From the NCBI GenBank assembly GCA_030704615.1, contig CM060732.1, positions 4,960,001 through 5,024,000 on the forward strand: DNA of 64,000 nt, given 5' to 3'. Both the position numbers and the translations under genes were made by a program. Each line of letters starts with the position of its first letter. The stretch's first letter is position 1. Of the stretch, positions 14,051-63,560 are shown piece by piece. The DNA is from Takakia lepidozioides. Taxonomy: Eukaryota > Plantae > Bryophyta. Below the pieces are notes generated by a model. It had not been told where the DNA came from and searched no databases. It saw nothing but the letters and a program-made list of their open reading frames with translations.

Positions 14051-17000
14051 TTATTCTCCGCCCGAGGTTGCATTGTCTTCATTGTCTGATTGTTGATTGG
14101 CCTCATCCAAATTTGCTCGTGCTTTCTCCGCCTCCACCGCGGTAATTTTCTTAGAGCTATTACGTGTCGTGTTTTTTCTGGCGGACATTGTCCAAACGAC
14201 AGAGTTAATGTGAATCCACTGAGGGGGATCATCTGGATTGAACTCCCAAACTTTGAACCAACAATCTCTGTACCTGTCCAAATCGGAAAGGCTACCTCCT
14301 TTCTTGGGTCTCCATCATTCGACGTGAACCTTCTTAAAATTCCTGGATCCTCTGTCGCGGACCACATCCGATATTGCCATCCCCATCCAAACTGGAAACG
14401 TCACAGTATCTACTGGTCGAACCAAGACGAAGAATCCATTCTCAATGTCCTTGAACGGATTTAAATGCTGCTTCGGTCTATCACACTGAGGACCACAATA
14501 CGGCTCCATGACTTCATCTTCTTCCGACAAATCATCCTCTGCAGGTGTATGGATTCCGGCTCTGTGGTGGTTGACAGCCCACTTGGTTGAGGGCCAAAAA
14601 CCCTCTTTAAGCGCGATTGAATGTCGTGATTCTCCATGAATGGGAAGATCAAGTTCTGCAAGGATTGCTTCCCAGTATTGATCATATTGTATAATGATGT
14701 CACGATAATGATCGTCAAGCAACATCCCCTTCTTCCAGAACTCCCTGTATTTTTTAATTCCAGTTTTGATAAAAGACTGTTTATCGGATGAGTCGTCTCC
14801 CACACCCCAAATTGGTGTTTTTTTTACAGCCTTGGGTTGTACTGCTACAGGCAACTTTGGAGATCCATCGGGATTCGACTTCCACATCTTCACCGCACCT
14901 TTTTTGGGGAGCCACTGAGAATCAGTAGCAAACTTCTTAAACTTCATGACAGGCCAACCATCTTCATCTACATAGAATCGAAATACGTGCATTTCTGTTT
15001 GCCCAACTAAAGCCTCTTTTCCATCGAGAATGCAACCGTCCACATACGCCTTGAAATCTGGCACCTCTTGAATGATTTGAGGAATAAATTGCAGATCTTG
15101 AGAGATCATAAAAAACCTCATAAGTTCGGAGAGAACGTAGGTGCTGTTTTACTTCAGCTTCTTCGATAAATAACTGAAGAATCCGTCGATGTCCTCATGG
15201 GTATGGCCAACCATGAGAAATCCCATCTGAATCTCCTCAAACACTCCTCTTGCAGTTAGGAGCGACAGAAAAGCCAGCATCCACCTGTTTTTGTTTTCCT
15301 TCACGCAGTTGTCCAACTGCAGGTAGAGTCTTCGTAGAAGTGAGACTTTTCTTTTTTTCTTCTCCTTATCGCTGAAAGGTTTCAGAACGTCGAGACACCT
15401 CGATTTACCCTTCATGAGAGATTCGAAATAGGAATTTTGAGGTGGGTGGTCAAAGATGTTACGACTTTCGCGGCAAGATGGCTTCTCTAGTTGGCGAAGG
15501 CATCTTACTAGAGAGCCAATCGTGAAGTTCGGGTCTCCCGGCCAGAAGTCCAGAGAGTACTGTCCGTAGGCTCCGTCCCCGTGGCCGTGGGTGACCATGC
15601 CGGTTAGCGAGATTGGAAGCTGACCTAAGCCGGAGACCATCTTGTTCGTCGTCTGCAACCTTGGAATAGCTGTTTTCCGATGATCCATCTTGTCATGAAT
15701 GATGCAGAGGAACTCGGACGGCATCATAGTTGACTCATTCCTCCAGCTGTGATAGAGTCTCCTACAAGACTCTTGAAGCCTGAGGTGCTTATCAAGTGCT
15801 TTCTTGTGCGAGGCCTGCTCATCGCTACGTTTGACCGACTTCTTGATTAGGTCTTTGAGCATCTCACAGTCTGTGCATTTGGCAAACGTGCTACCACTTT
15901 TTCTAACCTAGACATTGGGAAAAATCCGTTGTCTGATTCTACTGACGGCTGCCTGGGAGATAGGCTTCAACCCACATATTTTATTCGTCTGCAAGACGTC
16001 GGGGAAATGAACCTCGCGCGATCGTCCGAGCTTTAATAGTGAGAGGTCCGATACATTGTGTAGAAGCAAAACAGGGAAGGTCCCAAAAAATATAAAATTC
16101 GAAAAGTGGTAAAAAGAAGAAGAATTGACCTCATTACACTCCTCACGAATTTTTTTCCAGTTCAGTTTATGTGGCAGAACTCAAAGAGTATCTCTCCGTC
16201 CGTCTCGAATACAATGGGTCTTATGAGGCATGAGATCGGAATTTTCGTTTATAATCGACATTAAGTTTCCTTCAGCTTGACGAGTTTGTGGACGGGGCCG
16301 TTTCACTCCGGAATTCCCGTGCAACAATTTAACCACACCCTCTCTGCTTAGTTTTTTGTATTCCATGTAGGTTGAACGACCGATTCCGTGAATTGTCCAC
16401 CAAGCTGTCTCACACACATCAACGCCCTCAATGGTTATGTAGTCCTTTGTCGAAACCCCGTCGATTCGATGAAGTCTTTTGGGAACATCAAAACCGAGCT
16501 CTCTCCGTTCGTCGTAAGAGGATCCCCAATAAGCGGTCCGGATAGCGAGTGTTTTTCTCTAGTCGAAATATTGGCAACACTGTAAATTGCAACATTGTTT
16601 GCTGCTGACTTCTCGAATTGCCTGCAGAGAGAGACGAATATTTATCTTTTTGGAATCGTCTTTTTTCGAATTTTTTTTGGGTCTGTTGAAATGTTGGTAT
16701 GGTGCTTTTTTCACACCTTTCTCGTTGTGACCAATATCTGTTTGTTCAACCTATGAAGCTCATGTGACAATGTCCTGTCACTATCAATCAACCGAGTCTG
16801 CGTCAATGGCCAGTTCACGAGACACATGAGATTGGTCGAACCGCCATTCAAAATCCTTGTAACGAGCATCCCGACGTGATGTTCTCCAACTTTCTCACAA
16901 AATATCACCTCGTCAGGATGACATGCTTGAATTCTAAAGCACTTTGTTCATCTCCAAGGAGAATACACAATTTATTTCTCCAACTGTCTCTACCTATAAC

Positions 17001-20009: not shown

Positions 20010-21216
20010 CTATAACTGAAACTCCGAAAAGAGGGCGTAACATTGTGTTTTGGCCCGCAAGCCAAGCTCACTGGTCCCCCTGGATCCATATTCAGAAGAT
20101 TGTAAACCTCTGGGCTCACCCTGGTGCATGTATGAAGTGATGAGTTGTGGAATTATATCGAGTCTCTTTAGGTACGCACGTAGTACAAATGCTTGCAAAG
20201 GGCAGTATGATGCCCCGTCTTCGCCATGATCTGAAGTCGGTTGCAATTGCAGGTGGGTAATTCTGAAATGGTGATGGTGTACACCCTCATTGCAAACAGC
20301 TGAGGTCCCGCCATGGCCATCTGATACACATGCCCGAAGCCTGGTGGGGGCACTTCGTCGCTCTGGATTATAGTTGTCGGGATGTCAGTGCGCTGCACCA
20401 TCCCGAAATCCTGCGGCTGACTCAATCGCAGCTGTTTCCACCCCGGCCACACCGTGGGAGCCTCTGGCATTGTTTGATGTCGTACTTGGGTTTTCCATAC
20501 ACGCAAGAAGTCATAATGTCTTGCCTGCAGAACCAGAACTGGGTGGGTTGTCGTCTCCGCAAACTTTGCATGGACAAATCTTTCTTGGAAAATAGAGCAG
20601 GACGCCCCATCTGGATTCCTCCTTATCAACTCTAAACAACGTTGTCATGTATCCACTCGAATTGCGGAACACCTGCCTCGAAACGTTGGCTTTGTGCAAG
20701 CAATTCTCCACTGTGACGCAGACACAGTCGTCTCCACACGCTTGGCCATACTGCATAACAGCGGGCGGAATCTGGGGCAAGCGAGCGGTGGGACTTTCTC
20801 GCACGAATCCCCGCTTGAAGGCGATGGCGATCGTGAAACTCTTGAGCTCCACTGCTGGAAGACACATTGTGCGGCAACATGACGAGACCTCGAGGTGTTG
20901 TCCGAATGTTCCTGTCGGATCTCTAGGAATCCTCTTCACACCCGGGTTCCTCTTCAATCCTCCGCCTCACAGGGCGAGTTACGACGTCCCCCTCTAGGTG
21001 TTCACCTCTGCGGTGCAGAGGCGTCATTTTGATCTTCTTTCGCAATGCTGTCATCCACTTCAGTGGATTCTTCGACCTCAAAGTTGTTCGTACCAACAAT
21101 TCCTCCATATCCGGCCCAAAGCCCCATTGTTTCCCGCTCAGGAACTTGTAATACGTGGCTTGCTGCATAATTGCTCTGTCGATGTCCTCCATTATGGCCG
21201 TCACTACGTCCACCAA
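20010..21216 (-). pseudogene. Mutator-like transposase C-terminal part with SWIM zinc finger (same family as 2774-5000, different copy)
   Basis: VDVVTAIMEDIDRAIMQQ..YYKFL corresponds to the DLYVATTDD segment of copy 1; YTITISELPTCNC...CKHLYYV is a SWIM CxC...CxH motif. Confidence 0.65.
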
Positions 21217-38300: not shown

Positions 38301-40880
38301 ATCAGGCATCGCTAATCAAGGCACCTTCTTCAATACATTTCACCCAGTTTTAAATATCTGTGCGTTCGATACCACCTGAAACCGGGGTCGGTTTTTTTGG
38401 AGGAGGAAAGGAAGGACTCAAACGGCCTTGTTGTCGAGAGTATTGTTGTGCTCCACGATGATTTTGGCGATGGCAGGGAATGGCGAGTTCCACCATCGGA
38501 CAACGTCATATACAGGGCTGTTGGGGACTTCATTTGCACGCCAAATGCACCTTCTATCCTAGCGCCTTCCACGAAACAATCCGCGAATCAGAGAGTGGCT
38601 ACCTCAAAGAGAGAAGTCAGCAACGAAGTAAATCCAAAGCCGAACCCATCCATGAAGACGACAACAGGAAAGTAGCCAAAAACAGGTAACAGAGATGAGG
38701 AGAAGTTGTGGAATGAATACTTTTCTGAGCCCATTTACTGGTGACAGCCCTGGAAAAGGGCAAAGATGTGCATGGTTGCATCACCGAAGCTGGAATTGTA
38801 CCAGATGTGATTCTGAACAATACTCGTGGACATGTATGCCAAATGTGGGAGCATTGAGGATGCGGAGGGAGTGTTCAACACTATGGTTGAATGAGATGCG
38901 GTGTCGTGGAATGCGATGCTTGCAGGCTGTGCACAACAGGAGCGGGGGATGGAGGCTTTGGAGACCTATGAGCAAATGACGGGGGAAGGGGTGAAGCCTG
39001 ATCACATAACGTTTGTGTGCTTGTGCAAGCCTGGCAGCCTTGGAAAAGGGCAAAGAGGTCCATGGTTGCATCGTCAAAGCTGGAAATGTACCAAATGTGA
39101 ACTATACCCTTGTGGACATGTATGCCAAATGTGGAGGGAGTGTTCAACAATATGGCTGAATCTGCCTGTTTTGCCCTCTCAACAGACTTGGCCCTGAGAT
39201 GCATATTGAATTCTGTATGTTAGCTCGTTGGGTGTATCTGTGGTGGTTAGGAGTGACTTTGACAAGTTACTGCCGATGTGGCAGCAGGAAAGTATCCAAA
39301 AACAGATAACATAGATGAGGAGAAGGCTTGTTGGTGGATCTATGGTGGTTTTGGAGTGATTTTGACAAGTTACAGTAGGTAGGGTTGGGGTGTTTGTTGG
39401 AAGAACTTTGCGCCGTCAGTGTCAGCTGCTAGCAGCAAGGCTGAGGATGTATTCACGATATGTACACAGGCATGGATAGCTGAAGGAGCAGGGATCGAGT
39501 GTGGGTCCAGATTCATCCAAAAGGGCCGGATTTCAAGCTCCAGATTACCTATGATTCCCTGTGGAAGGATAGCTACAAGAAACAGATGGTCAACTGGAAG
39601 CCGCAGCAGCAGCGGCACAATGGAGAAAATCAGGCACTGCTAATGAAGACACCTTCTTCAACACATTTCACCCTATTTTTCCCTCTTATCAGAATCGGCC
39701 CTAAATTTCCATGTTGAATTCTGCAAGTTAGTTGGTTGAGTGAATCTTGTTTGGAGTGACTTTGACATGATACTGCCAATGTGACAACAGGAAAGTATCC
39801 AAAAACAGGTAACATAGATGAGAAAAAACTGTGGAATGAATACTTTTCTGACACCAGTCAATGGTGGGATAACCGAGGCAAAAAGGTGAATGCCTGTCAG
39901 ATTACCAGATGTGATTTTGAACACTGCCCTGGTGGACATGTATGCCAAAGTATCGAGGATGGCAAGGGAGCGTTCAACACTATGGCTAAACGAGATGTGG
40001 TGTTGTGGAGCGCGGTGCTTGCAGGGTATGCACAGCAGGGACGAGAGATGGAGGTGGGATGGAGGCTTTGGAGACCTATGCGCAATCGATGGGGGAAGGG
40101 GTGAAGCCTGATCACATCACGTTTGTGTGCGTTTGCAGTGCGTGTGCAAGCCTGGCACCCTGGAAAAGGGCAAGAGGTGCATGGTTGCATCACCAAATCT
40201 GCGAAGGGAGGGTTCGACACTATGGCCGAATGTGATGTGGTGTCGTGGAACACGATGCTTGCAGGGTATGCACAGCAGGGGCCTGGGAGGAGGCTTTGGA
40301 TACCTATGAGCAAATGATATTACATGTATGCAATTAGGGAGTATGAAGGATGCACATCAAGTGTTTAATAAAATGGGTCAACGGGATGTGGTCTCATGGA
40401 ACACCATGATTGCAGGATATGCCCAGAATGGGTGTGGTAGGCAGGCTTTGGAGATCTATGAGAAGATGCAACAGGAAGGGGTGACACCCAATAGGGCCAC
40501 GTTCCTTTGTGTTCCGAACGCCTGTGCAAGCCTAGGAGCCTTGAAAAAGGGCAAAGAGGTCCTTGCTAACATTCTCAAACCTGGAATCGCGTCATATATT
40601 AACTTGGAAACTGCCCTTGCTGACATGTACGCCAAATGCAAGAGCATGAAGGACAGACGACAAGTATTTAAGAGTATGGCTGTACGAGATGTGGTCTCAT
40701 GGAGTGCCATGATCATTGGGTACGCTCAAGAGGGTGTAGTAGTTGGGAGGCATTGAGGTTTATAAGAAAATGCAACAGGAAGGGTGTGACACGCAACAGG
40801 GTCACCTTCATCTGCATTCTCAAGGCTTGTGCCAGCCTAGGAGCCCTGGAAATGGGCAAAGAAGTCCACAGTGACATCAT
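35380..40880 (+). pseudogene. mosaic of PLS-PPR and PDF-exon fragments; the last PPR copy (40328-40880) is split by the retrotransposon
   Basis: repeated DVVSW/LVDMYAKCG/GVKPDHITF motifs; PDF exons at 38665-38725, 39500-39590 and 39790-39885; the reading EVHSDII|KAEIV resumes at 53528. Confidence 0.85.
37061..37376 (+). repeat. dispersed repeat ending in CTAG|T (Helitron-like 3' end), also at 56304-56448
   Basis: shared gatgacccaccc...gtgaaaaattgaac.tagttctcagaatt.gtcgct.gtagtgc.gagcaacgcgaagccctagt; similarity stops right after CTAGT in both copies. Confidence 0.45.
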
Positions 40881-41207
40881 TGTCAAGTTATTTTACCACT
40901 AGTGTGAAACTAGCTAGGAAATAGCTATCTTTTACATATTGACATTTGGGATTGGCCCAAGTGTCAATCCAGGGGTCAAGGCAGATTTAGGCCCTGGAGT
41001 GGTTATCTTCACGGCAAGCGCGGGAGGCTCATCTTTCTCGAGTTGAGCCTCACCGCGCCTAGCTATGGCGCCGTAGTGTGGATTCCCCATGGCGTGGGGT
41101 GCACTTGGCTTGACTTGTATTTGAGTGATGAGGTTATATATGCATGAGTTTATGCTTCAGCTTTGTGAGCTCGCATGAGCTTGTGCTTGTATTCTTCTTC
41201 TTTATCA
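40881..41207 (+). repeat. 3' half (segment A) of the 5' LTR, ending TTTATCA
   Basis: 326 bp identical to 53015-53340 except 2 substitutions. Confidence 0.92.
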
Positions 41208-41219
41208 CTCGAGAAAGAT
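41207..41219 (+). promoter_or_regulatory. self-priming primer-binding site (complementary to LTR 41031-41043)
   Basis: actcgagaaagat is the reverse complement of atctttctcgagt; there is no TGG tRNA-type PBS after the LTR. Confidence 0.7.
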
Positions 41220-42734
41220 CAGCTCGTATCTGTGAGTGCCAGATACGAGTTAGTTGTAGCACTTGTGGTTTTTTCTTGAGAATGAGAGAAACCAAGTTGT
41301 TATGCAAGGAGCACCGTGGAGCTCTTAGTTGTTAGAAGCGGAGGCGATGTGGGTTACGAGGTGGTAGACCTTGGCATTCGATCTTCAGCTTCAGAGATGA
41401 AAGCACCATGCTGCAGGTAATTCCAGAGCACCTTGATGGTTCCAGATTGTGTACATGCATGAGCAAGCACGATTGGGAAGAGGACCAGTCAAGAGCAGGT
41501 TATAGTGGCTTTGGTGGCAAAGCTGAGAACTGGACTTGGGAATGCGAGCTTTCATTGTGTGAAGGATTGCAAGACCAAGCGAAAGGGCTGATTTGCTTGG
41601 GGCAAATCAGTGCACTTTGTGGAGTATGGTGAGATTGGGTTTCAATCTCGAGCTTCAGCATTGAGAGGGCTCTTGTCATGGCAAGAGCAGGGCTGGAACA
41701 GGAGCTAAGAGGTGCGGCAAGGCCATGGAATGTGCACCTAGGGTTTCAGAGCTTGGAAGAAGAGTTCTTGCACCACAAGAGAAGTGTCTTGTGGCTGGAA
41801 ATGTAAGCCTTAGGGTTTCAGGAGCTTGGCAAAGGCTATGGAGTGCTTAGTCTTGTCATAGAGAGCATCAAGGAGCCAAGGAGCCAAGATAGGGGCTGAT
41901 ATCTCTTGTGTGAAGAGTTTGCATGTGTGAGCATGTATTCAGCTCATTGAAGCTTCCATCTTCAAGCTTGGAGGGCAAGCAAGGAAGAGGGAAGGGCTGA
42001 CTTCCCTTATGTGAGGGCAATGTATGTGTGGAGCATGCTATCAGCCTGGTGAAGGCTTGCACTTTTAGGTGTGGGAGTGCAAGAAAGGAAGGAAGGGGCT
42101 GGTTTCCCTGTAGGGCATGTAGAGCATGCTTTCAGCCTGCTGAAGCTTGTATTATCAGGTTTGTGGGTGCAAGAAATGAAGCAAAGGAGCTGATTCTCTT
42201 ATGGTGAGAGTGGGGCATGTGTGGAGCATGCCTTCAGCCCATTGAGGCTCTTGCTTCAAGCCTTAGAGAGCTAGAACGGAAGGTCTAGGGCTGGTTTCCA
42301 CTTGGAGTGAAAGAACAGCACTTGTAGGGCCTATGTGAGTTGGGGTTTCAACTTCAAGCTTGAAGGGAGCGCAACTCTTGAAGCAACAGGTGTAGAGGGC
42401 TGGAATAGGCTCTAAGACAGATGCTATGGCCAATGAGGGGAGTGCTTGAATGAGTGCTCACAAGGGCTGGGAACCAGCAGGGCTTGGTTGTTTGCCATTG
42501 AGTTTAGTGGCGTGTTGGGGGAGGCTAAGTGAGAAAAAAGGCTTGGTTTGTGGCAACCACCTCATGGCTTAGGGCTACTATGGTGGTGTGTGGGAGCCGA
42601 AAGAGCAAGGATACCTTGCTGATTTCCTCACAGCCACCATAGCTCGGTGGAAAGAAGCCTAGAGTCAAGAGACACAAACCCTAGCTTGGCGTGGCTAAAC
42701 CCCTTGGAGAAATGGCTAAACTGCCAGAGCGGCC

Positions 42735-45090
42735 ATGTGTGGGGCTGTGGTGTGTGTGGGGCTGTGTCATGTGTGCGGCTGTGGCAAGCTGTGAGGGCTG
42801 TTGTGACGGGCTGTGACAGGCTGGTGTGTGGGAGATGTGTGATGTGTGTGTGTAGTTGTGGACGGGCGGGTGTGGGTGTGACTGGCTGTGGTGTGCTGTG
42901 GGGCTGTGACAGGCTGTGCCGAGGCCTTTGAGGCTGTGACGGGGTGTGACAGGCTGTGACAGGCTTGTGCCCTGGGCCTGGGGGGCTGTGAAGGGGCCTT
43001 TGTGAGCAGGCTGTGGGGCTGTGACAGGCTGTGCCCTGTGGCCTTTGGGGCTTGTGCTGTGACGGGCTGTGTGCGGGGCTGTGACAGGCTGTGCCCTTGA
43101 GGCTGTGGGGCTGTGAGGGGCTGTGACAGGCCGTGTGCCTGATGGCCTTTGGGGAGGTGGGCTGTGAAGGGCTATGAGGGGCTGTTGAGGCTGTGCTGAG
43201 GCCTTTGGGGAGTGGCGGCTGTGTGTGGGCTGTGAGGGGGCTGTGACAGGCGGTGCCTGAGGCCTTTTGAGGATGGGGAGGGTGTTGGTGCGAGGGGTTG
43301 TGAAAGGTGGAGGCATGGCTTGGGGTGTATGTGAAGGGCTGTGAGGGGGCTGTGACAGGCCGTGCCTGAGGCTTTGAGGCTGTGAGGGGCTGGGATGTGG
43401 GCTGTGAGAGGTGGAAGGCTGTGACAGGCTGGGCTGGATTTGGGCTGGTGGGGTGTGCTGTGTGAGGGTGGTGGTGTGTGAGAGGCTGTGTGCACTTCTG
43501 TGAGGGCTGTGAAGCCGTGCCTGAGGCCTGTGGTTGCTGGCGGGGATTGTGTGTGAGGGGCCGTGACTGAGGCCTTTGGGGCTGTTGTGGGGGTTGTGAC
43601 AGGCCGTGATGAGGCCTTTGGGGCTTGTGACGGGCTGTAGGGGATGGGTGTGTTGGTGTGCAGGAGGTGTGAGGCTTGAGGAGGGGTGAGTTGAGATGTG
43701 AGGAGGGCTGTGTGTGAGGCTGTGACGGAGGCTGGGGAGGTGATGGGCTTCTGTGTATGGGCTGTGATGGGGTGTGAAGGGGTGCCATGGGCTGGGTGGC
43801 TGTGAGGTGTGAGGGCTGGTGTGTAAGGAGTGAAGTGGACTTGGGGGATTGTGTGGGATGTGGGGTGTGTGAAGGGCTGTGAGGGGCTGTGTGACAGGCC
43901 GTGCCCATGGCTTTGGGCTTTTTGTGCTGTGACGGGTGTGAGGGGCTGTGACAGGCCGTGCCTGAGGCCTTTGAGGCTGTGACGGGCTGTGAGGGCTGTG
44001 ACAGGCCGTGCCATGGCCTTTGGGGCTGTGACAGGCCGTGCATGAGGCCTTTGGGGCTGTGACGGGCTGTGAGGGGCTGTGACAGGCGTCCCATGGCTTT
44101 GAGGGCTTTGTGTGCTGTGAAGGGCTGTGAGGGGCTGTGACAGGCCGTGCCATGGCCTTTGGGCTGTGACGGCTGTGAGGGCTGTGACAGGCCGTGCCTG
44201 AGGCATGTGGGGCTGTGACGGGGCTGTGAAGCTGTGCCCATGGCCTTTGGGGCTGTGATGGGCTGTGAGGGGCTGTGACAGGCCGTGCTGAGGCCTTTGA
44301 GGATGTGTGTGTGATGGGTTGTGAGGGGCTGTGACAGGCTGGGCCCTGTGCCCTGTGGGGCTGTGACGGGCTGTGTGGGCTGTGACAGGCTGTGCCAGTG
44401 GCCTTTGGGCTGTGACGGGCTGTTGTGAGGGGCTGTGACAGGCTGTGCCCTGAGGCTGTGGGGCTGTGTGACGGGCTTGTGACGGCTGTGGTGCCATGGC
44501 TTTGGGGCTGTGATGGGCTGTGAGGGCTGTGTGACAGGACGTGCCTGAGGCATTTGGGGCTTTGTGCTGTGGCTGGTGTGACGGGCTGTGTGAGGGGCTG
44601 TGACAGGCCGTGCCTGAGGCCTGTGAGGCTGTGTGAGGGCTGTGTGAGGGGCTTGTTGTGAGGGCTGTGGTTGTGTGTGGACAGGCCGTGCTAAGGCCTT
44701 TGGGGCTGTGATGGGAGGGTGTGAGGGGATGGGGTGACAGGTTGTGGATGAGGAATTGTGAGGCGGTGTGGAGTTCTTGTGTGGTGTGTGTGTTTGTGAA
44801 GGGCGTGTGAGGGTGTGTTCGGTGGTGTTGGAGGGGCTGTGGGTATGACAGGGCCGTGGCCTGAGGCCTTTGAGGCTTGTGTGAGGGGCGTTGTGTGGAG
44901 GGGCTTTGTGTGAAAGCAGTGCCTGAGCTTTGAGGCTTTGTGGAGAGCTGTGAGGGGCTGTGACAGGTTGTGCCCCGTGGCCTGTGGGACTGTGAGGCTT
45001 GGTTTGTGTGACCAGTGAGCTTGTGGGCCTGTGCTGGTCTGTGGGGCCCGTGTTGACCTGTGGATGGCCTGTGCTGACTCGTGGAGGCAC
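42735..45090. repeat. G/T-rich degenerate tandem array (GGCTGTGA core; ~45-55 bp higher-order unit) in the retroelement 5' region
   Basis: many ggctgtga / ggctgtgacaggccgtgcc / gaggcctttgggg units; strong strand asymmetry. Confidence 0.9.
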
Positions 45091-45289
45091 TGTGGACTAA
45101 GGACTGGCTGTGGTCTGGAAGGCGAATTGTGAAGCTGTGGAGGGCGGTTTGAGGAGTATCTTCATGATATTCCCATGGTCATGCAGAGGTTCAGGTGTAG
45201 GCTATGTTAGGAACTTAGTATTCCAAACCATAAGCCGCAACAGGTTCTCTACCCGGTTACCTTGTGGAGAGGGGGTTAGGGACATGTTC

Positions 45290-46809
45290 ATGACCGGTTG
45301 AGTGTCAACACGGAGGTGCCACTAGTTGCTGGGGACAGTGCCGGTTCGAGCACTAGCGATACTAGTGGGTACACGAGACGAGGTGTGCGGTTTAGGCCAC
45401 CTTCACCTCCTGTGTCTTCACGGAAGGTTCTGATTCGGATTGTGAATCAGGAGGCTCATACGGCGGGTGCAAGTTGTTTCTTTGCCATTGTTGTGGGACA
45501 CAATGGAGGAGATGTATGGAGCTACCAAGGGGCCACGAAGGTACTCTGGGGCGGTGGGCACCATTGAGTTGGATGATTTTATCCAAGAGTTTGATAGTTG
45601 GTGTGATTTGCAGCAAATGCGCAATCCACAACTATTTACGCCGTTCATGGCATGGAAAGGGCTGTTTCAGCACCTTGAGGGGCCGCCTATGGATGATTAC
45701 CATGAGTTCAGGCGGGGGCATGAGGTTGAGATCGAGGAGTGGAGGATGTACTGGTCACCCGACTATGTCTCCATCACTAGGGGCACTAGAGCCACGAGGG
45801 CAGTGGCTACACCTGCCGCTGCACCGGCAGCTTCAGCAAGTAGCAGTGGGACTGGTGGTACAGTAGCTACGACGTCCACCCAAGCCACTACCGCACCAGC
45901 ACTAGCACCCGTGCCTGCCTTCAACCCTGTTGTGGAGTTCTTCGAAGAGTTGAGAGGGAACTACCAAGGGGTGAGGACAGAGAAGTTGCGGAGCTTGCAA
46001 GAGTTCCAACGGAAGCCGACCGAGAGCTTGAGGGAGGCTTTCACTCGCATGAGGCGCTTGATAAATGTAACCAAAGGGGTTACGGAAGCTCAGGCAGTCC
46101 AATTCTGGTATGGGATATTGGACAAGGAGCTGAGGAGAAGGGTGCGGGATGCAACTCTCCTACAAGCGGCCCAACCCACCTTAGCAAATGTGTTTTTGCT
46201 GGCAGAGCGGATAGAGCTCAACATGGTGGAGGAACGAGTGGTCATGGTGGGATTTGCTAAGGAGACACCACGGGGTAGTGGTGCTCCTAGCCAACCACTA
46301 CCTCAACGTGCTCAAGGCAACAAGGGGGCTCAGGTGAAGCTCAGGGAAGGGCAGAGAGGACCTCAGATGCAGGGGTCTCTCCCTTCATTTGCTGGCCAAC
46401 AACGGGCGGATGTGGTGTGCTGGACATGTGGAGGACCCCATGTCAAGAAGGATTGCCCAGAGGGAGGCAAAGGGCCGGCACATGCACAGCCTGCACAGTT
46501 GCAGTGTGGGCATTGTGGCAAGCACGGGCATGGAGAGGCCCAGTGTATAGTTTGCATCCTGAGTTGCGCCCAGGCCAGTTCCAAGGGAACAATGGTGGCC
46601 GGGGGCGAGGTGGAGCAGCCCAGAGAGGACGAGGTGGCCAGCCACGAGGTGCAGGCCAAGGGCAAGCTCAACGTGGCCAAGGACGCGGAGGTCAGGGTGT
46701 TGACCAAGGCATGGCCAACCGGCTTCAGCAGCTAGAGCAGAGGCTCGCTGCCATGGCTACAGCTCAGGTGGTACCGGCTCTAAGGCCGGATGGTCCACCT
46801 CCTGCCTGA
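45290..46809 (+). CDS. retrotransposon gag with two zinc knuckles (frameshifts)
   Basis: LDDFIQEFDSWCD, FQRKPTESLREAFTRM, CWTCGGPHVKKDC, CGHCGKHGHGEAQC. Confidence 0.8.
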
Positions 46810-47479
46810 GGGAGGAGAGAGATATGGGAGGCATGGGATTCATGTGTGGAGCAGCACTACCACTAGTGCAGGTGGAGTCTGCTGCAGCCGTGACTCGAGG
46901 AGCAGCACGAGTTCCTGAGCCACGAGGTGCAGAGGTGGAGTTGGATCCACAGCGTGGGGAGGCAAGCCGTCAGGCTAGGCTTCCTCAGTCATTCACATTG
47001 GCGGAGACAGTGTCGACGCCATCCATGGCACCTAGTTCTCGCCCGACTGTTACCGAGGCGGAGGTTACTATGCCATGGGGGAGAGCTACACGGGTAGCAC
47101 CACTACCTAGTGTTGCCAAGGCTACGGCAGCTAGTGTGCTGCTAGGAGCGGCCACATCTGTGTGCCAGGCTCCATTGTTCTCGGCTACCATGATTGCGAC
47201 GCCGGGGGTAAGACCAGCTGAGGTGTTCAGGCTGGCAGCTACACTCTGTGAGAGTGGGGAGGTTACTTCATCTTCTGCGGAGATAGTGGGAGGTGTAGTG
47301 CCGGAGGGATCCTCGGATTTGAGGGTCAAGACTGCCACGGCGGCGCCATGGCAAGCTGCAGCTGCCAGGTTGATGGAGCTGCCAGCTAGGCCAGCCATTG
47401 AGCGCGCCATGGTGACACCTGGAGTTGTCATGTTAGACAACCAGGATGGCATTTTCTGTTTGAGTGGACCGGCAGGCAA

Positions 47480-47800
47480 GAGGTACCGGCCACTGCGAGT
47501 CTTGTTGGACTCGGGAGCTCAGCCACTGATGCTGGGCAGAGCTGCTATTGCAGGCTTGGGCCTCACGGAGGCGGATGGATATGGAGCCTTGTCCTTTCCA
47601 GATACAGACGTCTCTGGGAGGATCGGAGCAGGCTCGGGGCATGACACGGCATGAGTTGGCTATCAGACTACGGCCGGATCACCCTACAGATGGCTCAGTG
47701 ATGCGAGCCAAGGCCATTGTGACAGACGCAGTCTCATACGATGTCCTGGTGGTGGGGGCAGTGTTGTACCCCATGGGCTTCACCCTGGATTTTTGGGAGG
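47480..47800 (+). CDS. retrotransposon aspartic protease
   Basis: RVLLDSGAQPLMLG...YDVLVVG. Confidence 0.8.
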
Positions 47801-48224
47801 AGTCAGCTTCCTATAGGCCTGCATGGCAGTCAGGGGAGGGCCGGCGTGTGCAGCTCCCTGTGACGTTCATAGGAGGAGTTGCGGTTGCCCAGCGAGGCAA
47901 GATGCCGACACTAGCAGCATTCACAGCGGCAGTGAGTTGGCCTAGAGAGTTGCTTGAGGGCAATGCTCATTCAGAGGATGTACCACCTCCGGGAGAGCAG
48001 GATGACATGTATGGTATGGCGGAGTTGCCTACCATGGTTGCTCAGACTCCATTGTGGGGCACGAGCAAGGATTTGCAGCGGGATGCTGATCGACGGGTGC
48101 AACAAGCCTGGGTGGAGGCTTTTGTACCGTCAGGAGAGGAGGAGAGTGTGGGGATTGCACCAGGACCACCTCAATGTCTCCATTGGACACCACACCTATT
48201 GTGTGGCAGTCTCCGGATGAAGGC

Positions 48225-49170
48225 ATTTGTCTTCTGGACTTGTTTGGCGGGATCAGCACCGGATTGGCTGCTGTGTTACAGGCAGGTGTACGAGTTCGGC
48301 GTTACCTGTATGTGGAGAGGGATGAGACTGCACGACGCGTTTCACTTCGCCATGTTGCTCAGTTGGTGCAGCGGTACCCTGAGTTGTTGTCGGTGTCTGC
48401 AATTCGTGGATATCAGCAGGCCTTGCCAGCAGACATTTCGTTGCTGGGGGCGCAGGATTTGGAGCGGGTTGGCTCCATTGATCTGGTAGTGGCAGGTTGG
48501 CCCTGCCAAGGGCATTCATCAGCCGGGCATGGCAATGGATTGCGAGACTCGAGGTCGGGTCTGTTTTGGGAGATGGTGCGGGTTTTGCGCCACTTGCAGC
48601 TTCATCAAGCTGTATCTCCAGCATACATCTTGGAGAATGTGCCACTGATGGGCGATTCTCGGGCCAGGGTGATGGCCAGTGTGCATCAAGTCCGGTCGTG
48701 GCTTGGGTCAGCAGTGTTGCTAGATGCAGCTACAGTGGGGTCACGGGCTCATCGTCCACGGCTATGGTGGACTAACATGATGCCACCCGCACTGCTCAAG
48801 CGTGCATTTGATGGGGTGCAGCGGCCAGCACATCTCACAGTGGATAACATTCTGGACACAGGGAGGCAGTCTCAACGTGTGAGACACGATGACCGTTCGC
48901 CTTTGCAGTGGTCAACAAGGTGGGTCAACCACGAGCAGCATTACCTACACTGCTCAGCTTCCCAGGATCGCATGCTTTCCGGGATAGTGGACCTGGCCTC
49001 CTGTGGGATGCTCAGTTGCAGCAGTTAGTGGAGCCTAATGCTGACGAGCGTGAGCGGGCAATGGGTTTTACCACTGGTACCACGGCGGTGTCGTCTCTTT
49101 CTGAGGCATCACGTCGTCAAGTGTTGGGGCAAGCAATGGATCTCAATTGCTTGACCTGGATTATCAGCTT
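48225..49170 (+). CDS. C5 cytosine DNA methyltransferase domain, DNMT3-like, inside pol
   Basis: motif I LDLFGGI (F at 48243), II YVERD, III DI, IV AGWPCQG (PC 48501-48506), V SRSGLF, VI LENV (48633), VIII AHRPRLWWTN, IX ERERAMGF, X RRQVLGQAM; one frameshift at ~48905. Confidence 0.92.
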
Positions 49171-49679
49171 GGCTCTAGCTGAGCAACGCAGAGTGCGGAA
49201 TACACTTCCCTCAATGGTCTCTCTGCCTACCGAGACGGTACAGGCAGTGAGTGGGGGCGAGCATATGAGGACCACGGGGTGCATGCATCCATGGCACACG
49301 TGGGAGGTGCTCGAGGTTCAGAGAGGGAGTTGGCAGCCAAGGCGGCTGTGATGGATGAGGTTGGGGATTCTTCTCGAGTTGAGGAGGTCCTCAAGGATGA
49401 GATGATGGGGCAGGATGATGCCTTGTCATTGACTGAGCAAGGTAGGGAGTACTGCTCAAGAGGTTGCAGCAAGCACCACGGGACGCGTCCTCTACTCTAA
49501 GCCCACTGGACTTAAGGTTGTAGTTACGGAGGACAATTGGGAGCCTGACATTGGACCCATTGCACCGGAGGAGAGAGACGACGTATACGGCGGTTCCTGA
49601 GGGCTTACAGGAATTGCTTTACCTTCAGTTTGAAGGACTTGGAGCACTGAAGGGTCAAGAGATCCGTATTGAGTTGGCC

Positions 49680-50960
49680 ACTGACACGCCAATCTTTCGG
49701 AGACCCTATAGATACAGTGACATGGAGAGGTCTTTGATTCGATGAGGACTCAAGATCTCTGGGAGGCAGGTTTGGTGGAGCTCTCTGGTGAGAGTATTCT
49801 TCAGCACAGTGATGCCAGCCAAGGGATGTCTATGGGCAATTGGACGGAGAGACTTATGTTGCGGTGATTACCGGCCTGTAAATCGTCAGACCAAGTCCGA
49901 TAAGTATGCCATGCCAACACCAGAGGAGATCTTTGATGCCATCGGGCATGCTAAGGCCTTTAGCACTTTGGATTTACGATCCGGATATCACCAGTTGCCA
50001 ATCAAGGAGGCGGACAAGCAGAAGACGGCATTCTGGGGGATCAATGAGCACGGCAAGGATTGCCTATATCAGTGGCGGTTCTTACCATTTGGGCTTAAGA
50101 ATGCTCCTGCAGAGTTTCAGAGAGTCATGGATAGGATTCTAGCAGGGGTGGACTTGCTCGGTGCTACATAGATGACATCATCATCTTTAGTGTTACGATG
50201 GAGGAGCATGAGAGACACCTTCAGGTGTATTGGAGCGCTTAAGAGCGCACGGATTGAAGTTGCATCCGGGGAAGTGCAAGTTTTTCCACAACCAGATTGA
50301 GTATCTGGGTCACATGATATATCCTGGAGGATTGGGGGTACAGCAGACTAAGGTAGAGGCCATTGCACAATTCCACGCCCCACGGATGTGAGCCGAGTTC
50401 GAGCTTTCATGGGGTTGGCAAACTATTATAGACGGTTTGTCAAGGGATTTAGTACCATTGCAAGGCTCTAACCAAGCTGACCAAGGTGGACCAGGAGTGG
50501 CAGTGGGAAGATGAGCAGGAACGAGCTTTTCAAGAGCTCAAGGCGAGGTTGACCTCGGCGCCTATCTTGAGACGACCTATCAGGGGGCGTCCCTTTCAGC
50601 TGCATACGGATCGGAGCATCTGGGGCTTGGAGCGGTGCTCACACAGGTGGATGATGAGGGAAGAGAGTTCGTAGTGGCTTACGCTAGCCGCTCGAACAAC
50701 GCTGCAGAGGCAAAGTACAGCTCATATGAGGGAGAGTGCTTAGCTGCAGTGTGGGCCGTGGCACACTTCAGGTGCTATCTATACGGCAATCTTTTCACCC
50801 TTGTCACGGATCACCAGCCACTCAAGTAGTTGATGGAGTCAGACAAGCTTACGGGGAAGCTTGCACGGTGGGCACTTATACTCCAGGAGTATGACTTTCA
50901 GGTTGTGCATCGACCGGGTTGGTCAATCGGGATGCGGATGGATTGAGTCGCAATCCATGC
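49680..50960 (+). CDS. reverse transcriptase and RNase H (frameshifted)
   Basis: CGDYRPVN, STLDLRSGYHQ, LPFGLKNAPAEFQR, YIDD (50165-50176), FQLHTD, VAYASR, EGECLAAVWAV, VTDHQPL. Confidence 0.93.
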
Positions 50961-51259
50961 ATGAGCCAGCAGGATGACACTGGAGCTCGGTGGCCATGGT
51001 GAGACGGACGAGGAGATGGTGCCGGGATGGCACGCATCTGCATTTTTGTGTATCTTGGCATCGGGAGGTCAGATTGGACCTACAACAGGGATGACTGTAG
51101 ACGGAGTGTCTGAGGACCCTGAGGCTAGTGATGAGCTAGGTGGTGCCAGAGATATACATGAGGATTCGGCTGTGTTGGACTACCTCCGCACGGGAGACAC
51201 GGCAGCCATTGTGACTGCCAGGGAGAGGGATCGGATCCTACAACGAGCCAAGAGGTTCA

Positions 51260-52380
51260 AGTGGGAGGGGATACACCTACTTCGAGTGTGGGAGGGTGGT
51301 CGGGTAGGATTGTGCCTCACCCCACACAGCGTGCACGGTTAGTGCGGCATGCCCATGAGGAGTTGGGGCATTTTGGAGTGCGACGCACTCACAGTTTACT
51401 GCAGGGGCAGTATTGGTGCGTGGTATGCATACAGAGGTGCAACAGTTTGTGGCTAGGTGCATGGTGTGTGACAGGGTGCGTGCTTCGTTTAACACCCCTA
51501 CACCACAGTTGCATCCTTTACCTATCATGGGATTGGGCTACAGATGGAGTCTTGACTTCGCAGGACCGTTGCCACTGACTATGCGCCACCACAGATATGT
51601 GTTGGTGATGGTGGAGCACTTCTCCAAGTGGATTGAGTTGGTTCCATTGCCTGACAAGGCTAGTGAGGGGCTGCGTATGCATTCTTGGATCGTGTGCTTA
51701 GCCGATTTGGTGCTCCAGCTGAGGTACTCATGGACCAAGGGAGAGAGTTCTTGGGGAGTTTCAGGCTTTGTGTGATAAAGCCTTGATAGACCACCGCACC
51801 ACTTCTCGGATCATCCTGAGGCCGATGGCTTAGCAGAGAGAGTTGTTCAGACGGTGAAGAGGGGTTTGCGCAAGTATGGCTTGCAGAAGGGACACCTAGG
51901 AGATTGGGATCTTCAGGTTTCTTGGTTAGCCATGGGCTACAGGTTCAGCAAACAAGCATCACTTGCCTCCTTCTCACTGGCCGAGAGCCGGATTTGCCTG
52001 CAGCCATTCGTAGGGACACTGCTCAAGTCCTTAACCTTGACGATCCGGACGTGTGGATACGTGCATGTGATCAGCGTGCAGAGTTGTTCAAGAAAGTCAT
52101 GCCCCATGGCTTTTGAGAACCTTGCCATTGCACAGCACCGTGATACGTTGAGGTATGCCACTATACGTGGTGGGGATATCGTCCTGGGGTTCGGAGGTTT
52201 AGCCCTGGTGACTATGTTTATTTGCAGCAGACTGCTCCTACGACTCTGGATGTTACTGTAGGGCGTGTTATTCTGAGGGTTCGAGAGGTGTTGCCCTCAG
52301 GGGTCCCGATCTAGAGGGTCGGGATGGCATGACTTGGAAGACCATGTGCGTAATTGTGCGCCATGTCACCTTCCCAATGT
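51260..52380 (+). CDS. DDE integrase (frameshifted)
   Basis: AHEELGHFG...CMVC (HHCC), WSLDFAGPL, VEHFSKW, DQG, HPEADGLAERVVQTVK. Confidence 0.9.
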
Positions 52381-52429
52381 CGATGGCAGAGTTGACCCAA
52401 ACTTGGCAGTGGTACCTGCAGGTTTGAGG

Positions 52430-52564
52430 TGCATGCTCTGTGGGTCTGCCAAAGGGGCAGCCACCATGCTGGTGTGTGATCGGTGCTCAAGGGTTGGCAT
52501 ATGGGATGCTTGACACCACCTCTTGAGAAGGTTCCTGACGGAGATTGGTTTGTGTCCACACTGC
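52430..52564 (+). CDS. PHD finger at the integrase C-terminus
   Basis: CMLC...MLVCDRC..GWHMGCLTPPL.KVPDGDW.CPHC (C4HC3), read across two 1-nt indels. Confidence 0.85.
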
Positions 52565-52829
52565 TTGGGATAGTGGCAGTGGACATGACTGGAGGCAGCT
52601 AATAACATGGAGGCCAAGCTCATAGGAGTCAATACATGAGATCCCAAGCTCAAGTTCACAGGTTGCAAGATGGCGACTAACGATGGGGCAACTCTTGCAC
52701 CCGGCCTCTTGATCTATCGAGTTTGAGTGTAGTAGGGATAGTGGTGGAGGACTTAGTGAGGCTATGGTCACTATCACATCTTGTGGCTACCTGGACTTAG
52801 AGGGACCTAAGCACCAGCTAGGGGGCGAT

Positions 52830-53340
52830 TGTGTGGACTAGTGTGCTGCCATAGTGGGCAGCGTAGTGGCAGCCTGTGACTGACTAGTTGTAGCCTAGTG
52901 GTTGGACTAGTGCTGGACTAGTGGTAGTAGTGGTATACTAGTGTGTGGTGTGCACATGTGTTGTGTGGTTTTGGACAGCGATGTAGTTGTGTAGCGATAT
53001 GTATGCGCACCAGCTGTCAAGTTATTTTACCACTGGTGTGAAACTAGCTAGGAAATAGCTATCTTTTACATATTGACATTTGGGATTGGCCCAAGTGTCA
53101 ATCCAGGGGTCAAGGCAGATTTAGGCCCTGGAGTGGTTATCTTCACGGCAAGCGCGGGAGGCTCATCTTTCTCGAGTTGAGCCTCACCGCGCCTAGCTAT
53201 GGCGCCGTAGTGTGGATTCCCCATGGCGTGGGGTGCACTTGGCTTGACTTGTATTTGAGTGATGAGGTTATATATGCATGAGTTTATGCTTCAGCTTTGT
53301 GAGCTCGCATGAGCTCGTGCTTGTATTCTTCTTCTTTATC
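52830..53340 (+). repeat. complete 3' LTR (B+A, 511 bp) preceded by PPT AGGGGGCG
   Basis: starts TGTGTGG after tagggggcgat; ends TTTATC. Confidence 0.88.
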
Positions 53341-53343
53341 TAT

Positions 53344-53527
53344 TGTGTGGACTAGTGACTGCCATAGTGGGCAGCGTAGTGGCAGCCTAGTGACTGACTA
53401 GTTGTAGCCTAGTGGTTGGACTAGTGGCTGGACTAGTGGTAGACTAGTGGTATACTAGTGTGTGGTGTGCACATGTGTTGTGTGGTTTTGGACAGCGATG
53501 TAGTTGTGTAGCGATATGTATGCGCAC
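53344..53527 (+). repeat. extra 5' half (segment B) of the LTR
   Basis: repeat of 52830-53010 with a few small indels. Confidence 0.9.
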
Positions 53528-54634
53528 GACATCATCAAAGCTGAGATTGTGTCAGATATAACTTTGGAGAATACACTTGTCGACATGTATGCCAAATGTG
53601 GGAACATGAAGGATGTGCATCAAGTGTTTGACAAGATGACTAAACGAGACATGGTCTCATGGAGTGCCATGATCGCAAGATACATACAGGATGGGTCTAG
53701 TAGGGAGGCTTTCAAGATCTATGAGCAGATGGAACTTGAAGGGGTGATGCCCAACCATGTCACATTTATTTGCATTCTCAATGCGTGTGCCAGCCTTGGA
53801 GCCTTGGGAAAGGGTAAAGAAGTCCATGCTGACATCTTGAAAGCTGAAATTACGTCATATGTAAATCTGGAGACTGCACTTGTAGACATGTAAGCCAAAT
53901 GTGGGAGCTTAGAGGATGCGCGTGAAGTGTTTGACAGTATGGCTAAACAAGATGTGGTCTCATGGAATGCGCTGATCATAGGATATGCTCAGCACGGGTG
54001 TGGTAGGGAGGCCTTGCTCCTATTGGAACAAATGCAACAGGAAGGCGTGAAGCCTAATAGTAGTACCTTCATATCTGTCTTTTCAGCAAGCAGCCATGGG
54101 GGTCTAGTGGATGAAAGCCATCAGTGCTTTGATTCCTTGAGACATGATCATGGTCTCACTGCTACAGTGGAGCATTTTAGCTGCATGGTGGACCTTCTTG
54201 GCCGTGCAGGGCGATTGTATAAAGCAGAGGACTTAATTAACACGTGCCAATCATGCCAGATGTTGGGGTATGGATGGCCTTGCTTGGTGCCTGCAGAGTT
54301 TGGAGATGTGGAGATAGCAGAACGTGTAGCAAAGAGCATTCTCAAGATTGATCTGGAGCACTCCGCGGCTTATGCGCTGCTATCAAACATTTATGTTGCG
54401 GCTGGCAGGTGGGATGACAAAGCAAAGGTGAGAAAAATGATGAAGGACAAGGGTATCAGAAAGGAGCCAGGGTGCAGCTGCATTGAGGTTGACAACAGGG
54501 TGCATACTTTTGTTGTAGGAGACAAATTGCATCCACAAATTCAGGAAATTCATGCTGAGCTGCAGAGATTGTCTGGACTGATGAAGGGGGTGGGATATAT
54601 TCCTGACACGCGCTTTGTGTTACATGACGTTTAG
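53528..54634 (+). pseudogene. 3' part of the PLS-PPR-E/E+ gene split by the retroelement; truncated in the DYW domain
   Basis: DIIKAEIVSDITLENTLVDMYAKCG..., HFSCMVDLLGRAGRL, YALLSNIY, KEPGCSCIEV, GYIPDTRFVLHDV*; in-frame TAA at 53891. Confidence 0.9.
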
Positions 54635-61819: not shown

Positions 61820-63560
61820 TTTTTTTATTTTTTATTTTTTTTAAAGAAAGGGGCTGATACTCTGCAAAAACTTTATTGGAGCGTCAAAACGAGCACAGAG
61901 AGGAGGAAAAAATAACCTCCTTAGGGGCCGTAAAGGCGTGTCACATGGGGAATCACCCAGCACTGATAGGAAGTAGGGGGGAGTTGTAGAATACTACTGA
62001 CCAAAAACCTTGGTTGGGGGGAGAGGGGGGATTGCAACGAGGCCTAACCACGAGTAAGGCCACCTAAAACGAAAAATCAGCCTAAGTATTTGGTTGTTTA
62101 AGCAGCTGCGGGGGGGGGGATAGTGATTCTATCACAAAACCAGCGAAGATGACTAGCCACCAAAGTTCAGCTGGAGCTTCGACTTTGCCGCACGCAGACT
62201 GAGATGTTTCCAGTTGACATCGGGCTCTTCCGACTCAGCAGGGGATTTGCCATTCCCTGGGGATGGCATCATGCCAAGTGATTCGCGAGTCCGAGATCCT
62301 GGTGCAGAGGATGCCGCCTTTTGCCCAGGAGAGGTCGAAGTCCGAGAATAATTGATTACACCTCCTGTCACTGCACCTGCCTGCAGCTGTTTGCAAAGAC
62401 ACCCAAGCCTTGCGCCCCTCAGTCATCAGATCAGCAAATAGTTTGTAAAGCACTAATCTGATGCTGGGGCTCTTCCCTTGAAATATCAGACTACATCTTG
62501 CCTTCCATAAAGACCAAAGGGTGTGGCCCCTCAAGCATCCCCATACTGGGCAGTTATTCTAGATGGAGCCACTGCGTAGATTAAGCAGAATAATGTGTGC
62601 ATCTCGTGGGGACACAACCTGCCACTGCGCATAGAATGCGGTCACCAGATGCCAGGTTCTAGCAGCTAGATTGCAGTTTGTGAAGGCATGCTCGATAATC
62701 TCACTTTGGTTGCAATTACAAACCACACAGGCAGGGTCAGCATCTGGAAGGCTGGCAGCCATTGGAAAAATTATGTTCGCCAACTTCCGTAAGAAAGCAC
62801 TGATTTTGGAGGAGCGGTGTTTGGCCCATATGTCCTTCCAAATTGAGTTCCATGCAGGGGGCTGCAAATCGAGGTTCCATTTATCTACAAAATTCGCCTT
62901 CCCGAGAAGCAACCTATACCCCGTTTTCACTGTGTAGCCCAGTAGTGGCGTGTTTTTGTCATCTTTCCATGACCAATCCCCCGGGTCCATCTGTAATCTA
63001 GAGAGCGGAAAGCATATAAACCAAATGAATTTGGATTTTCTAGCCCAACATATCTCTCCGCCCTGAGGAGGTGTTGGCACTGTGGACCCTGATAGAGTAT
63101 CGAAGACTCTAATTCTAATGGTGCAGCTCCCCTGTTCCGATTAGCACTAATCTCCCTGTGCCGGTTGCTTGGAAAAGCAGTCCGTTCCAATGAGTGCTTG
63201 TAGACGAAATTGCTAGGAGGGCCACTTGCCTGCCTCCTACCGAGCATCCGAACCAGACAGGCAAGCCATTACCAGTACAGGGTCCCCCTAGCAGGAGGGG
63301 CTGCACAAATTCTTATGATATCCCATCCGCTCCTGCTGGAGTTTGTGGATAAGAGGGAGGATAACAAGGGGAGGTCTAGAAACTGATTTTTTCCCAGATA
63401 TTGGCAATGTGTGAAAGCCCTTTTGTCCCCTAAGTTGCCCACTTTTTATGGAGGGTAGTCAGGGCTTCATTTTGCAAGTTGGGGTTCCCGAACAAGGGTT
63501 GGCGAATCGCCTCTTCAAAGCAGGTAGGTGCCCTTTGAGTAAGATGGGGCCTCATCACTT
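61820..63560 (-). mobile_element. LINE (L1-clade-like) 3' part: ORF2 C-terminal zinc finger, 3' UTR and poly(A)
   Basis: WKDIW...CVVCNCNQSEIIEHAFTNC (zf-RVT), WSLWKARCSLIFQGK; T-rich tract at 61820-61842 is the minus-strand poly(A). Confidence 0.8.

Follow-up and report, generated by a model that had tools for sequence, protein, structure and literature searches.

A DNMT3-like methyltransferase and permuted repeats in a Ty3/gypsy-type retrotransposon of Takakia lepidozioides and its green-plant relatives

The window analyzed here, a 64,000-nt stretch of Takakia lepidozioides DNA (assembly GCA_030704615.1, contig CM060732.1, positions 4,960,001−5,024,000), contains at 40881−53531 on its + strand a broken copy of a Ty3/gypsy-type retrotransposon, in which gag and the protease (PR) are followed by a C5 cytosine methyltransferase (MTase), reverse transcriptase (RT), RNase H (RH), integrase (IN) and a PHD-finger remnant. 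Our reading of this copy, to which we assign a probability of about 0.7, is that it belongs to the KnitGypsy-Dnmt3 kind of element, an old lineage of green plants, that its MTase is under selection, is likely made together with Gag and likely methylates the element's cDNA, and that its integrase likely inserts the element by cutting a palindrome within the long terminal repeat (LTR). Apparently new in this work are the spread of such elements to liverworts, Sphagnum, Closterium and chlorophytes, a conserved stop codon, a permuted LTR and the palindrome. The MTase had been noticed in a model's note made from the letters of the window (the original prediction), which knew of no characterized land-plant family; the literature we searched, which did not extend to Repbase reports or subscription journals, likewise contained no land-plant or chlorophyte family and no description of the stop or the palindrome.

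The methyltransferase domain and the spread of the family

The original prediction had placed a C5-MTase between the protease motif LLDSGA and the RT motif YIDD, and every motif it named was found there in canonical order (motif I 48222−48254, PCQ 48501, ENV 48633, AHRPRLWWTN 48747, ERERAMGF 49046 and RRQVLG 49112); the Pfam model PF00145, which it had suggested as a check, matched with E 2.6e-13. A PDB search with the N-terminal part of the window MTase ranked DNMT3A first (E 8e-10), followed by DRM (2e-5) and HhaI (3e-4), and a profile of 44 relatives gave DNMT3A 1.5e-26, DRM 5.5e-16, HhaI 1.3e-9 and DNMT2 3.5e-6. The structure model of the unbroken MTase domain of a relative (L002; pLDDT 95.4) matched DNMT3A/B/C over the whole length (Foldseek E 2e-19), and its comparison with DNMT3A/B yielded a Z-score of 29.8 and a root-mean-square deviation of 2.5 over 272 residues, ahead of M.MpeI (25.8) and HhaI (24.4). 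By these sequence and model rankings the element MTase is DNMT3-like and unpermuted, as had been predicted. The ESM Atlas search returned phage-type methylase clusters only and was uninformative, and a viral collection yielded phage MTases with 24−50% identity over short segments, which served as outgroup and control.

The first protein search returned 42 hits, the closest homologues being 65−77% identical, with Marchantia polymorpha, Calypogeia fissa and two Sphagnum species among the named ones; a representative library added 112 clusters at E ≤1e-30 among its best 150 rows overall. Two architectures were distinguished, type A with the order of the window (PR-MTase-RT) and type B with RT-RH-MTase-IN. 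Among 425 proteins, 84 were type A, 164 type B and 77 carried the MTase only, while the 100 without an MTase hit were mostly pieces starting shortly before RT. Named type A rows came from Marchantia, Calypogeia, Sphagnum, Closterium and Klebsormidium, and named type B rows from the chlorophytes Scenedesmus, Tetradesmus, Hariotina, Haematococcus and Volvox; one protein of Coleochaete and one of Riccia matched the RT-IN part only. The named MTase rows of the searches included none from ferns, lycophytes, hornworts or seed plants, which is a weak negative because repeats are masked.

All element MTases fell on one side of a tree against 12 phage or bacterial outgroups (support 100). The type A MTases formed one clade (support 99), and in a quick tree including Klebsormidium and no host DNMT3 rows, the 22 PR-MTase-RT rows made up one side (SH-aLRT 97). 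The type B RTs likewise formed one clade (support 100), the streptophyte-type rows staying unresolved in this RT tree of search hits only. The pattern, drawn from few named rows and quick trees, fits descent from a green-plant ancestor with one domain move, and transfer between lineages is a possible alternative. What had been a curiosity of one alga would thereby become a green-plant-wide lineage. Several relatives were unusual in other respects: precomputed Pfam matches placed a G-patch or chromodomain beside the PHD finger in four chlorophyte-type proteins (P0040, P0245, P0291 and P0295), one type B polyprotein (P0269) was filed under a bacterial metagenome-assembled genome and is probably algal contamination, and a chromodomain and PHD finger occurred together in 1 of the 120 relatives listed.

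Among 236 whole domains, a sample biased toward similar proteins, three residues were nearly invariant: the catalytic Cys (231 domains), the Glu of motif VI (235) and the second Arg of motif VIII (232). PCQ was present in 32/32 loci, partly by construction since the scan pattern contained PCQ. In motif IV, E-C-Q stood in place of P-C-Q in 97/151 type B and 16/57 type A domains, a form unusual among C5 MTases. Between the window and five loci of other families, the proportion of synonymous differences in the MTase (pS 0.74−0.77) was saturated, and that of nonsynonymous differences (pN 0.18−0.21) was below the values for gag (0.25−0.33) and above those for RT (0.10−0.15). The dN/dS ratio of the MTase was 0.19−0.22 between L002 and three loci and 0.30−0.58 inside one decaying family. 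These substitution patterns indicate that the MTase is under purifying selection.

Family copies were sampled from contigs of public sequencing runs. Summed contig depth in run X1, which is no copy number, was (in thousands) 16−30 over the MTase, 17−25 over gag, 19−36 from RT to integrase and 1.6 in the first flank bin, with no dip over the MTase; none of the 15 joints listed (at least 20 in all) skipped the MTase, and one contig of run X8 spanned 47477−49164, across protease and MTase. The MTase is family-wide and no chimera. The original prediction had named three results that would count against it, namely that most copies lack the MTase, that its Cys and ENV are not conserved and that the assembly is chimeric, and none of them was found when looked for. 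A one-off capture of a host gene or a chimeric assembly would draw on the possibility that the indels of the window are assembly errors; with the domain order shared by the 84 type A proteins, the even depth, the lack of MTase-skipping joints among those listed and the saturation of synonymous sites beside a conserved protein, its probability is close to nil.

A conserved stop codon and possible roles of the methyltransferase

In the interval from MTase to RT, 20 of the 21 type A loci with both domains (three families, several loci being the same insertion) shared the position of a stop codon with CAR-Y behind it, which was TAG in 12 and TAA in 8 cases. One locus (L026) reads TAG TAG at this site, in another (L027) the gag-PR-MTase frame and the RT-RH-IN-PHD frame are both clean and separated by this single stop, and five Marchantia proteins of 1278−1281 aa terminate there; a conserved stop before RT was looked for in the type B loci and not found. 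As the conserved stop divides gag-PR-MTase from RT-RH-IN-PHD, these reading frames suggest that bryophyte-type families likely produce the MTase at the level of Gag. The original prediction had put the domain inside pol, and the stop of the closest families moves it to the end of the gag-PR frame. The sequence CAR-YYA past a stop is described as the readthrough signal of tobacco mosaic virus (PMC2194720). Several observations weigh against readthrough at this stop: the strict CAR-YYA occurred in only 3/21 contexts and CAA-CCC in 17, the window copy is too broken for the stop to be located, and Tca2 has a similar stop that is reported to give no readthrough in yeast.

In Marchantia, full-length gag-PR-MTase frames are annotated as host genes (P0004, P0462, P0463, P0469 and P0470), and two of these five lie on the V chromosome. 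Element MTases inflate the counts of DNMT genes in bryophyte and algal annotations. Marchantia polymorpha is a model for which methylation mutants exist, and its full-length gag-PR-MTase genes make the question raised in 2018, what purpose a transposon MTase serves, directly testable.

We propose that gag-PR-MTase would be abundant and that RT-RH-IN-PHD would be produced through a leaky stop, the stop being seen in relatives and the readthrough putative. The packaged MTase would then put CG methylation on the cDNA, and the new copy would arrive marked like host DNA. We give even odds to this putative methylation of the element's own cDNA. The MTase might instead provide no camouflage and act on host or rival DNA or RNA, or serve mainly as a CpG-binding module. 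Such a role, which we consider doubtful, would accommodate the Klebsormidium MTase domain that yielded no methylation in yeast, a result reported as inconclusive by its authors (PMC5890265), as well as the Glu found at the motif IV Pro position in many chlorophyte-type and some streptophyte-type domains and a Gag-level expression above the need of one cDNA. It is harder to reconcile with the near-invariant catalytic Cys, Glu and Arg, which binding alone would not need, and with the predicted fold of a complete DNMT3-like domain.

Besides the yeast result, two findings weigh against the reading of a selected, camouflaging MTase. The observed/expected CpG ratio was 0.53 in the element and 0.34 in the flanking DNA of pentatricopeptide repeat (PPR) genes, i.e., depletion was no stronger in the element. 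Two RT proteins of the chlorophyte-type clade (P0403 and P0416) have integrase directly after RNase H, with no MTase in between, and the domain therefore seems dispensable in some lines. As to the donor, the homologue searches returned no host DNMT3 sequences and the trees contain no such rows.

Permuted ends and an internal palindrome

The original prediction had assumed a plain LTR pair; the ends found were A ... B-A-B, and the inserted layout is A1-internal-B1-A2-B2. Taken as a unit, B plus A has the form of a normal LTR, in which a polypurine tract (PPT) precedes B1, B starts with TG and A ends with CA. Directly behind A1 lies a sequence whose exact complement is found within A, with a length of 13 nt in the window, 17 nt in L012, L018 and L021, and 16 nt in L027; the letters of the primer site differ between families, and the anatomy of PPT-B plus A-primer recurred in three families. 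A self-complement of 10 nt at the A end was present at 6/11 tested 5′ ends, and 2/11 had none. The self-priming site was not found in L003 and L011 and was offset in L019/L020, and self-priming in chlorophyte-type elements was weakly suggested by 11−12 nt in L038 and L057.

The inserted copy begins with TGTC and ends with GACA, both inside U3, and a 4-bp target duplication was present in all three copies with both ends. With its TCAT duplication the element ends at 53531 rather than at 53527 as first proposed. The window by itself had pointed to an 8-bp duplication, which we discarded because other copies end with GACA and two relatives show 4 bp. The intact joint of B and A, found in host copies on the public-run contigs, is the palindrome GACAGCTGTC (GACA-GC-TGTC). 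GACAnnTGTC was found downstream of integrase in 10/30 loci, of which three are type A and seven type B as judged from their domain order, and was exact in nine of the ten, compared with 0.065 expected and none in 1.27 million bases of phage loci; the flanks of these joints read C-GACA on the B side in 9/10 and TGTC-A on the A side in 10/10. The join between A2 and B2 varied in length, with 2 letters in the window and L021 and 17 in L006/L007, where 9 letters of the primer site are followed by PPT letters at the end. This variable join with primer and PPT letters therefore looks like two cDNA ends joined with their primers unremoved.

From the LTR-like unit, the palindrome and the A2/B2 join, we infer that the element is reverse-transcribed in the ordinary way, that the cDNA ends are joined and that integrase cuts at the palindrome. 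Transcription would start in A1 and the RNA would prime itself, as the anatomy suggests; ordinary LTR reverse transcription would produce a linear B-A-internal-B-A cDNA, the ends of which, with good support from the sequence, may be joined as in a 2-LTR circle to give the A2/B2 join. Within one LTR, integrase would then cut both strands at GACA^GC-TGTC and insert the ends so made, the outcome seen being the TGTC...GACA termini with the 4-bp duplication. On this sequence evidence, integration via an internal LTR palindrome is probable. The end anatomy suggests that a DDE integrase works on an internal site rather than on the cDNA ends, contrary to the textbook LTR cycle, and LTR finders that expect two terminal repeats likely miss or misdate such elements.

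Three findings count against the palindrome route. The palindrome was absent in 20/30 loci, most of them ending within 2 kb, and two loci (L039 and L042) lacked it across 3.7 kb. The opposite cut was seen at 0/9 independent 5′ ends, though a circle has two equal palindromes. This polarity could be accounted for by a preference for one LTR if no circle formed, i.e., if integrase made its palindrome cut in the left LTR while the cDNA was still linear, held and inserted both cut ends, and host end-joining then sealed A2 to B2 in the chromosome, which would generate the same A-internal-B-A-B product with the same ragged join. Such a route would require a chromosome break to stay open, held by two free cDNA ends, and cleavage of a circle does have a precedent in foamy virus integrase, but at the LTR-LTR junction (PMC1180852). 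We regard the no-circle route as unlikely, if worth keeping in view.

Even less probable is that, in a lineage dating back to the origin of green plants, the single conserved CpG on the B side of the att palindrome is methylated by the element's own MTase and that this mark decides which palindrome integrase cuts; if true, such a switch would be restriction-modification-like and would give the MTase, the permuted ends and the polarity a common explanation. The identical A-coding-B-A-B layout would also be expected from a route of the DIRS/PAT/Ngaro kind, in which a circular intermediate arises by repeat-guided strand transfers, with integrase in the place of the recombinase. Pfam scans of the window and the element proteins revealed no tyrosine recombinase, and ordinary LTR elements have just such a PPT, primer site, TG...CA unit and 4-bp duplications; with the primer remnant at the A2/B2 join, this makes a DIRS-like route very improbable, and cutting of a joined cDNA at the palindrome remains our preferred reading. 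Two copies (L013:11868 and L015:7057) end as PPT-B-flank without A2-B2; candidate causes are a collapsed assembly, a 1-LTR circle that became inserted, and recombination of one B copy with another.

The window copy and its place among known elements

Aligned to intact relatives, gag-PR-MTase of the window falls into six segments, i.e., at least five breaks, and RT-IN contains more breaks still; because of these frame breaks across the MTase, gag-PR and RT-IN, the window copy is not coding-intact. The A repeats differed at 2/326 bases upon recomputation, as originally counted, and the B repeats were 96.8% alike. The insertion had been called recent on the strength of the A repeats, whose near-identity stands; the many coding indels conflict with it, and we are unsure of the age. 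The public-run contigs differed from the window by many indels of 1−4 letters (at least 57, 12 of them listed in detail). Either a decayed copy mobilized in trans or errors of a long-read assembly could account for these indels, and the contig comparison favored neither, as the PPR flank is highly repeated and the right junction is unbridged in the listed contigs. The feature coordinates are listed in Table 1. Pfam matched RVT_1 in the window at E 4.9e-15, gag (PF03732) only at E 0.002, below the cut-off, and nothing in the window PHD piece, the PHD finger being matched in the intact relative L027 (PF00628, E 2.6e-10).

Table 1 Features of the retrotransposon copy in the window
Feature	Position	Strand	Remark
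Left target-site duplication TCAT	40877..40880		Identical 4 letters at 53532-53535
Repeat A1, starts TGTC; probable 3′ part of U3 plus R-U5	40881..41207	+	
13-nt exact complement of the bases just past A1; putative transcript 5′ end and self-primer	41031..41043	+	
Self-priming-type primer-binding site, without a TGG tRNA site	41207..41219	+	Criterion as described in PMC6317226
GT-rich degenerate tandem array, 2.4 kb, inside the 4.3-kb leader	42734..45094		
gag with zinc knuckles, break near 46.54 kb	45503..46764	+	59% to Marchantia P0004
Aspartic protease, LLDSGA 47502-47519, break near 47.57 kb	47400..47880	+	
DNMT3-like C5 cytosine MTase, motifs I-X, catalytic Cys 48504-48506, single break near 48.9 kb	48222..49180	+	
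Reverse transcriptase, YIDD 50165-50176, several breaks	49532..50370	+	
RNase H, broken	50600..50915	+	PF17917 E 1.3e-23
Integrase, HHCC zinc domain and DDE core, broken	51300..52305	+	
PHD-finger remnant, broken	52430..52554	+	By likeness to relatives
PPT directly before B1	52820..52829	+	
Repeat B1, starts TG; probable 5′ part of U3	52830..53012	+	
B1/A2 joint, imperfect in the window	53009..53018		Palindrome GACAGCTGTC in other family copies and relatives
Repeat A2	53015..53341	+	
Repeat B2, ends GACA	53344..53531	+	2 letters to A2 (putative join of two cDNA ends)
Right target-site duplication TCAT	53532..53535		Within an interrupted PPR (E/E+) gene or pseudogene

The 4.3-kb leader also contains a 91-bp repeat (41970−42239), and a leader of only 1.14 kb was found in the L021 family. 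A perfect 10-bp hairpin at 41223−41249, just behind the primer-binding site, may aid the self-priming fold. Broken fragments of PPR genes surround the element in a long array (8181−8800, 31000−40880 and 53532−55700), and parts of the right-flank PPR reach element-like contig depths, which indicates that such PPR fragments are present in the genome in many repeats. The interrupted PPR gene has E and E+ motifs, and the established range of genes of this class makes a land-plant host most likely. Elsewhere in the window there are a second, unrelated gypsy remnant at 21204−23643, whose − strand encodes pieces of RT and RNase H and whose + strand encodes gag (PF03732, zf-CCHC); two open reading frames at 14315−15907 (−), one of which matches DUF7869 (E 4.5e-35), transposase-like by eye; transposase-like pieces without a Pfam hit at 3107−4958 (+) and 154−792 (−); and a piece of the long interspersed nuclear element (LINE) type with zf-RVT at 62559−63140 (−).

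The window copy very probably belongs to the kind of KnitGypsy-Dnmt3 of Klebsormidium nitens, which is described as combining Gypsy domains, an unpermuted DNMT3-like MTase and purifying selection, and whose repeats are called DIRS-like in a figure legend, as in the A-coding-B-A-B of the window (PMC5890265). The order PR-MTase-RT-RH-IN is shared with K. nitens (P0418, with 45−66% identity by piece; GAQ92009.1), whose MTase falls in the clade of the window; in P0418 and several other type A proteins MTase and RT form a continuous frame, whereas the two are divided by a stop in the bryophyte-type families. The charophyte precedent cited in the original prediction was real, and what it missed is that the precedent has the same odd repeats and is of the same lineage as the window. 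The available text of PMC5890265 calls KnitGypsy-Dnmt3 an acquisition in the K. nitens lineage, on a survey without liverworts or Sphagnum, and offers no explanation of the repeats; in the available parts of two later papers of the de Mendoza group such elements are mentioned only as being in "streptophytes". SymbioDIRS-Dnmt3 likewise has a DNMT3-like domain and A-coding-B-A-B repeats, and is reported to methylate CG in yeast (PMC5890265); it carries a tyrosine recombinase and a DIRS RT, in contrast to the DDE integrase, Gypsy RT and target duplications of the window. The window thus lacks the tyrosine recombinase and the absence of target duplication that characterize DIRS/PAT/Ngaro elements.

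Tf1/Sushi and the plant Tcn1 chromoviruses share with the window the self-priming site, the Ty3/gypsy order and non-seed-plant hosts (PMC6317226), and differ from it by the absence of an MTase and of permuted ends and by a chromodomain, in the place of which, after integrase, the window has a PHD finger; neither "PHD" nor "methyltransferase" occurs in the available text of that paper. Host plant DNMT3 has an unpermuted DNMT3-type domain in non-flowering streptophytes, as in the element, and DUF3444 (Yaari 2019, PMC6453930), for which the element proteins scanned gave no Pfam hit. Troyka was rejected, its CG...CG termini, 3-bp duplication and animal hosts not being matched here (PMC12440569). 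Foamy virus integrase is reported to cut a palindrome in the continuous DNA of 2-LTR circles as well (Delelis 2005, PMC1180852), with the site at the LTR-LTR junction and a colinear provirus, whereas in the window the site lies within U3 and the copy is permuted. Of the canonical Ty3/gypsy features, the element family has the TG...CA termini and a duplication within 4−6 bp (3/3 two-ended copies), and the two whole LTRs at the ends are replaced by permuted ones.

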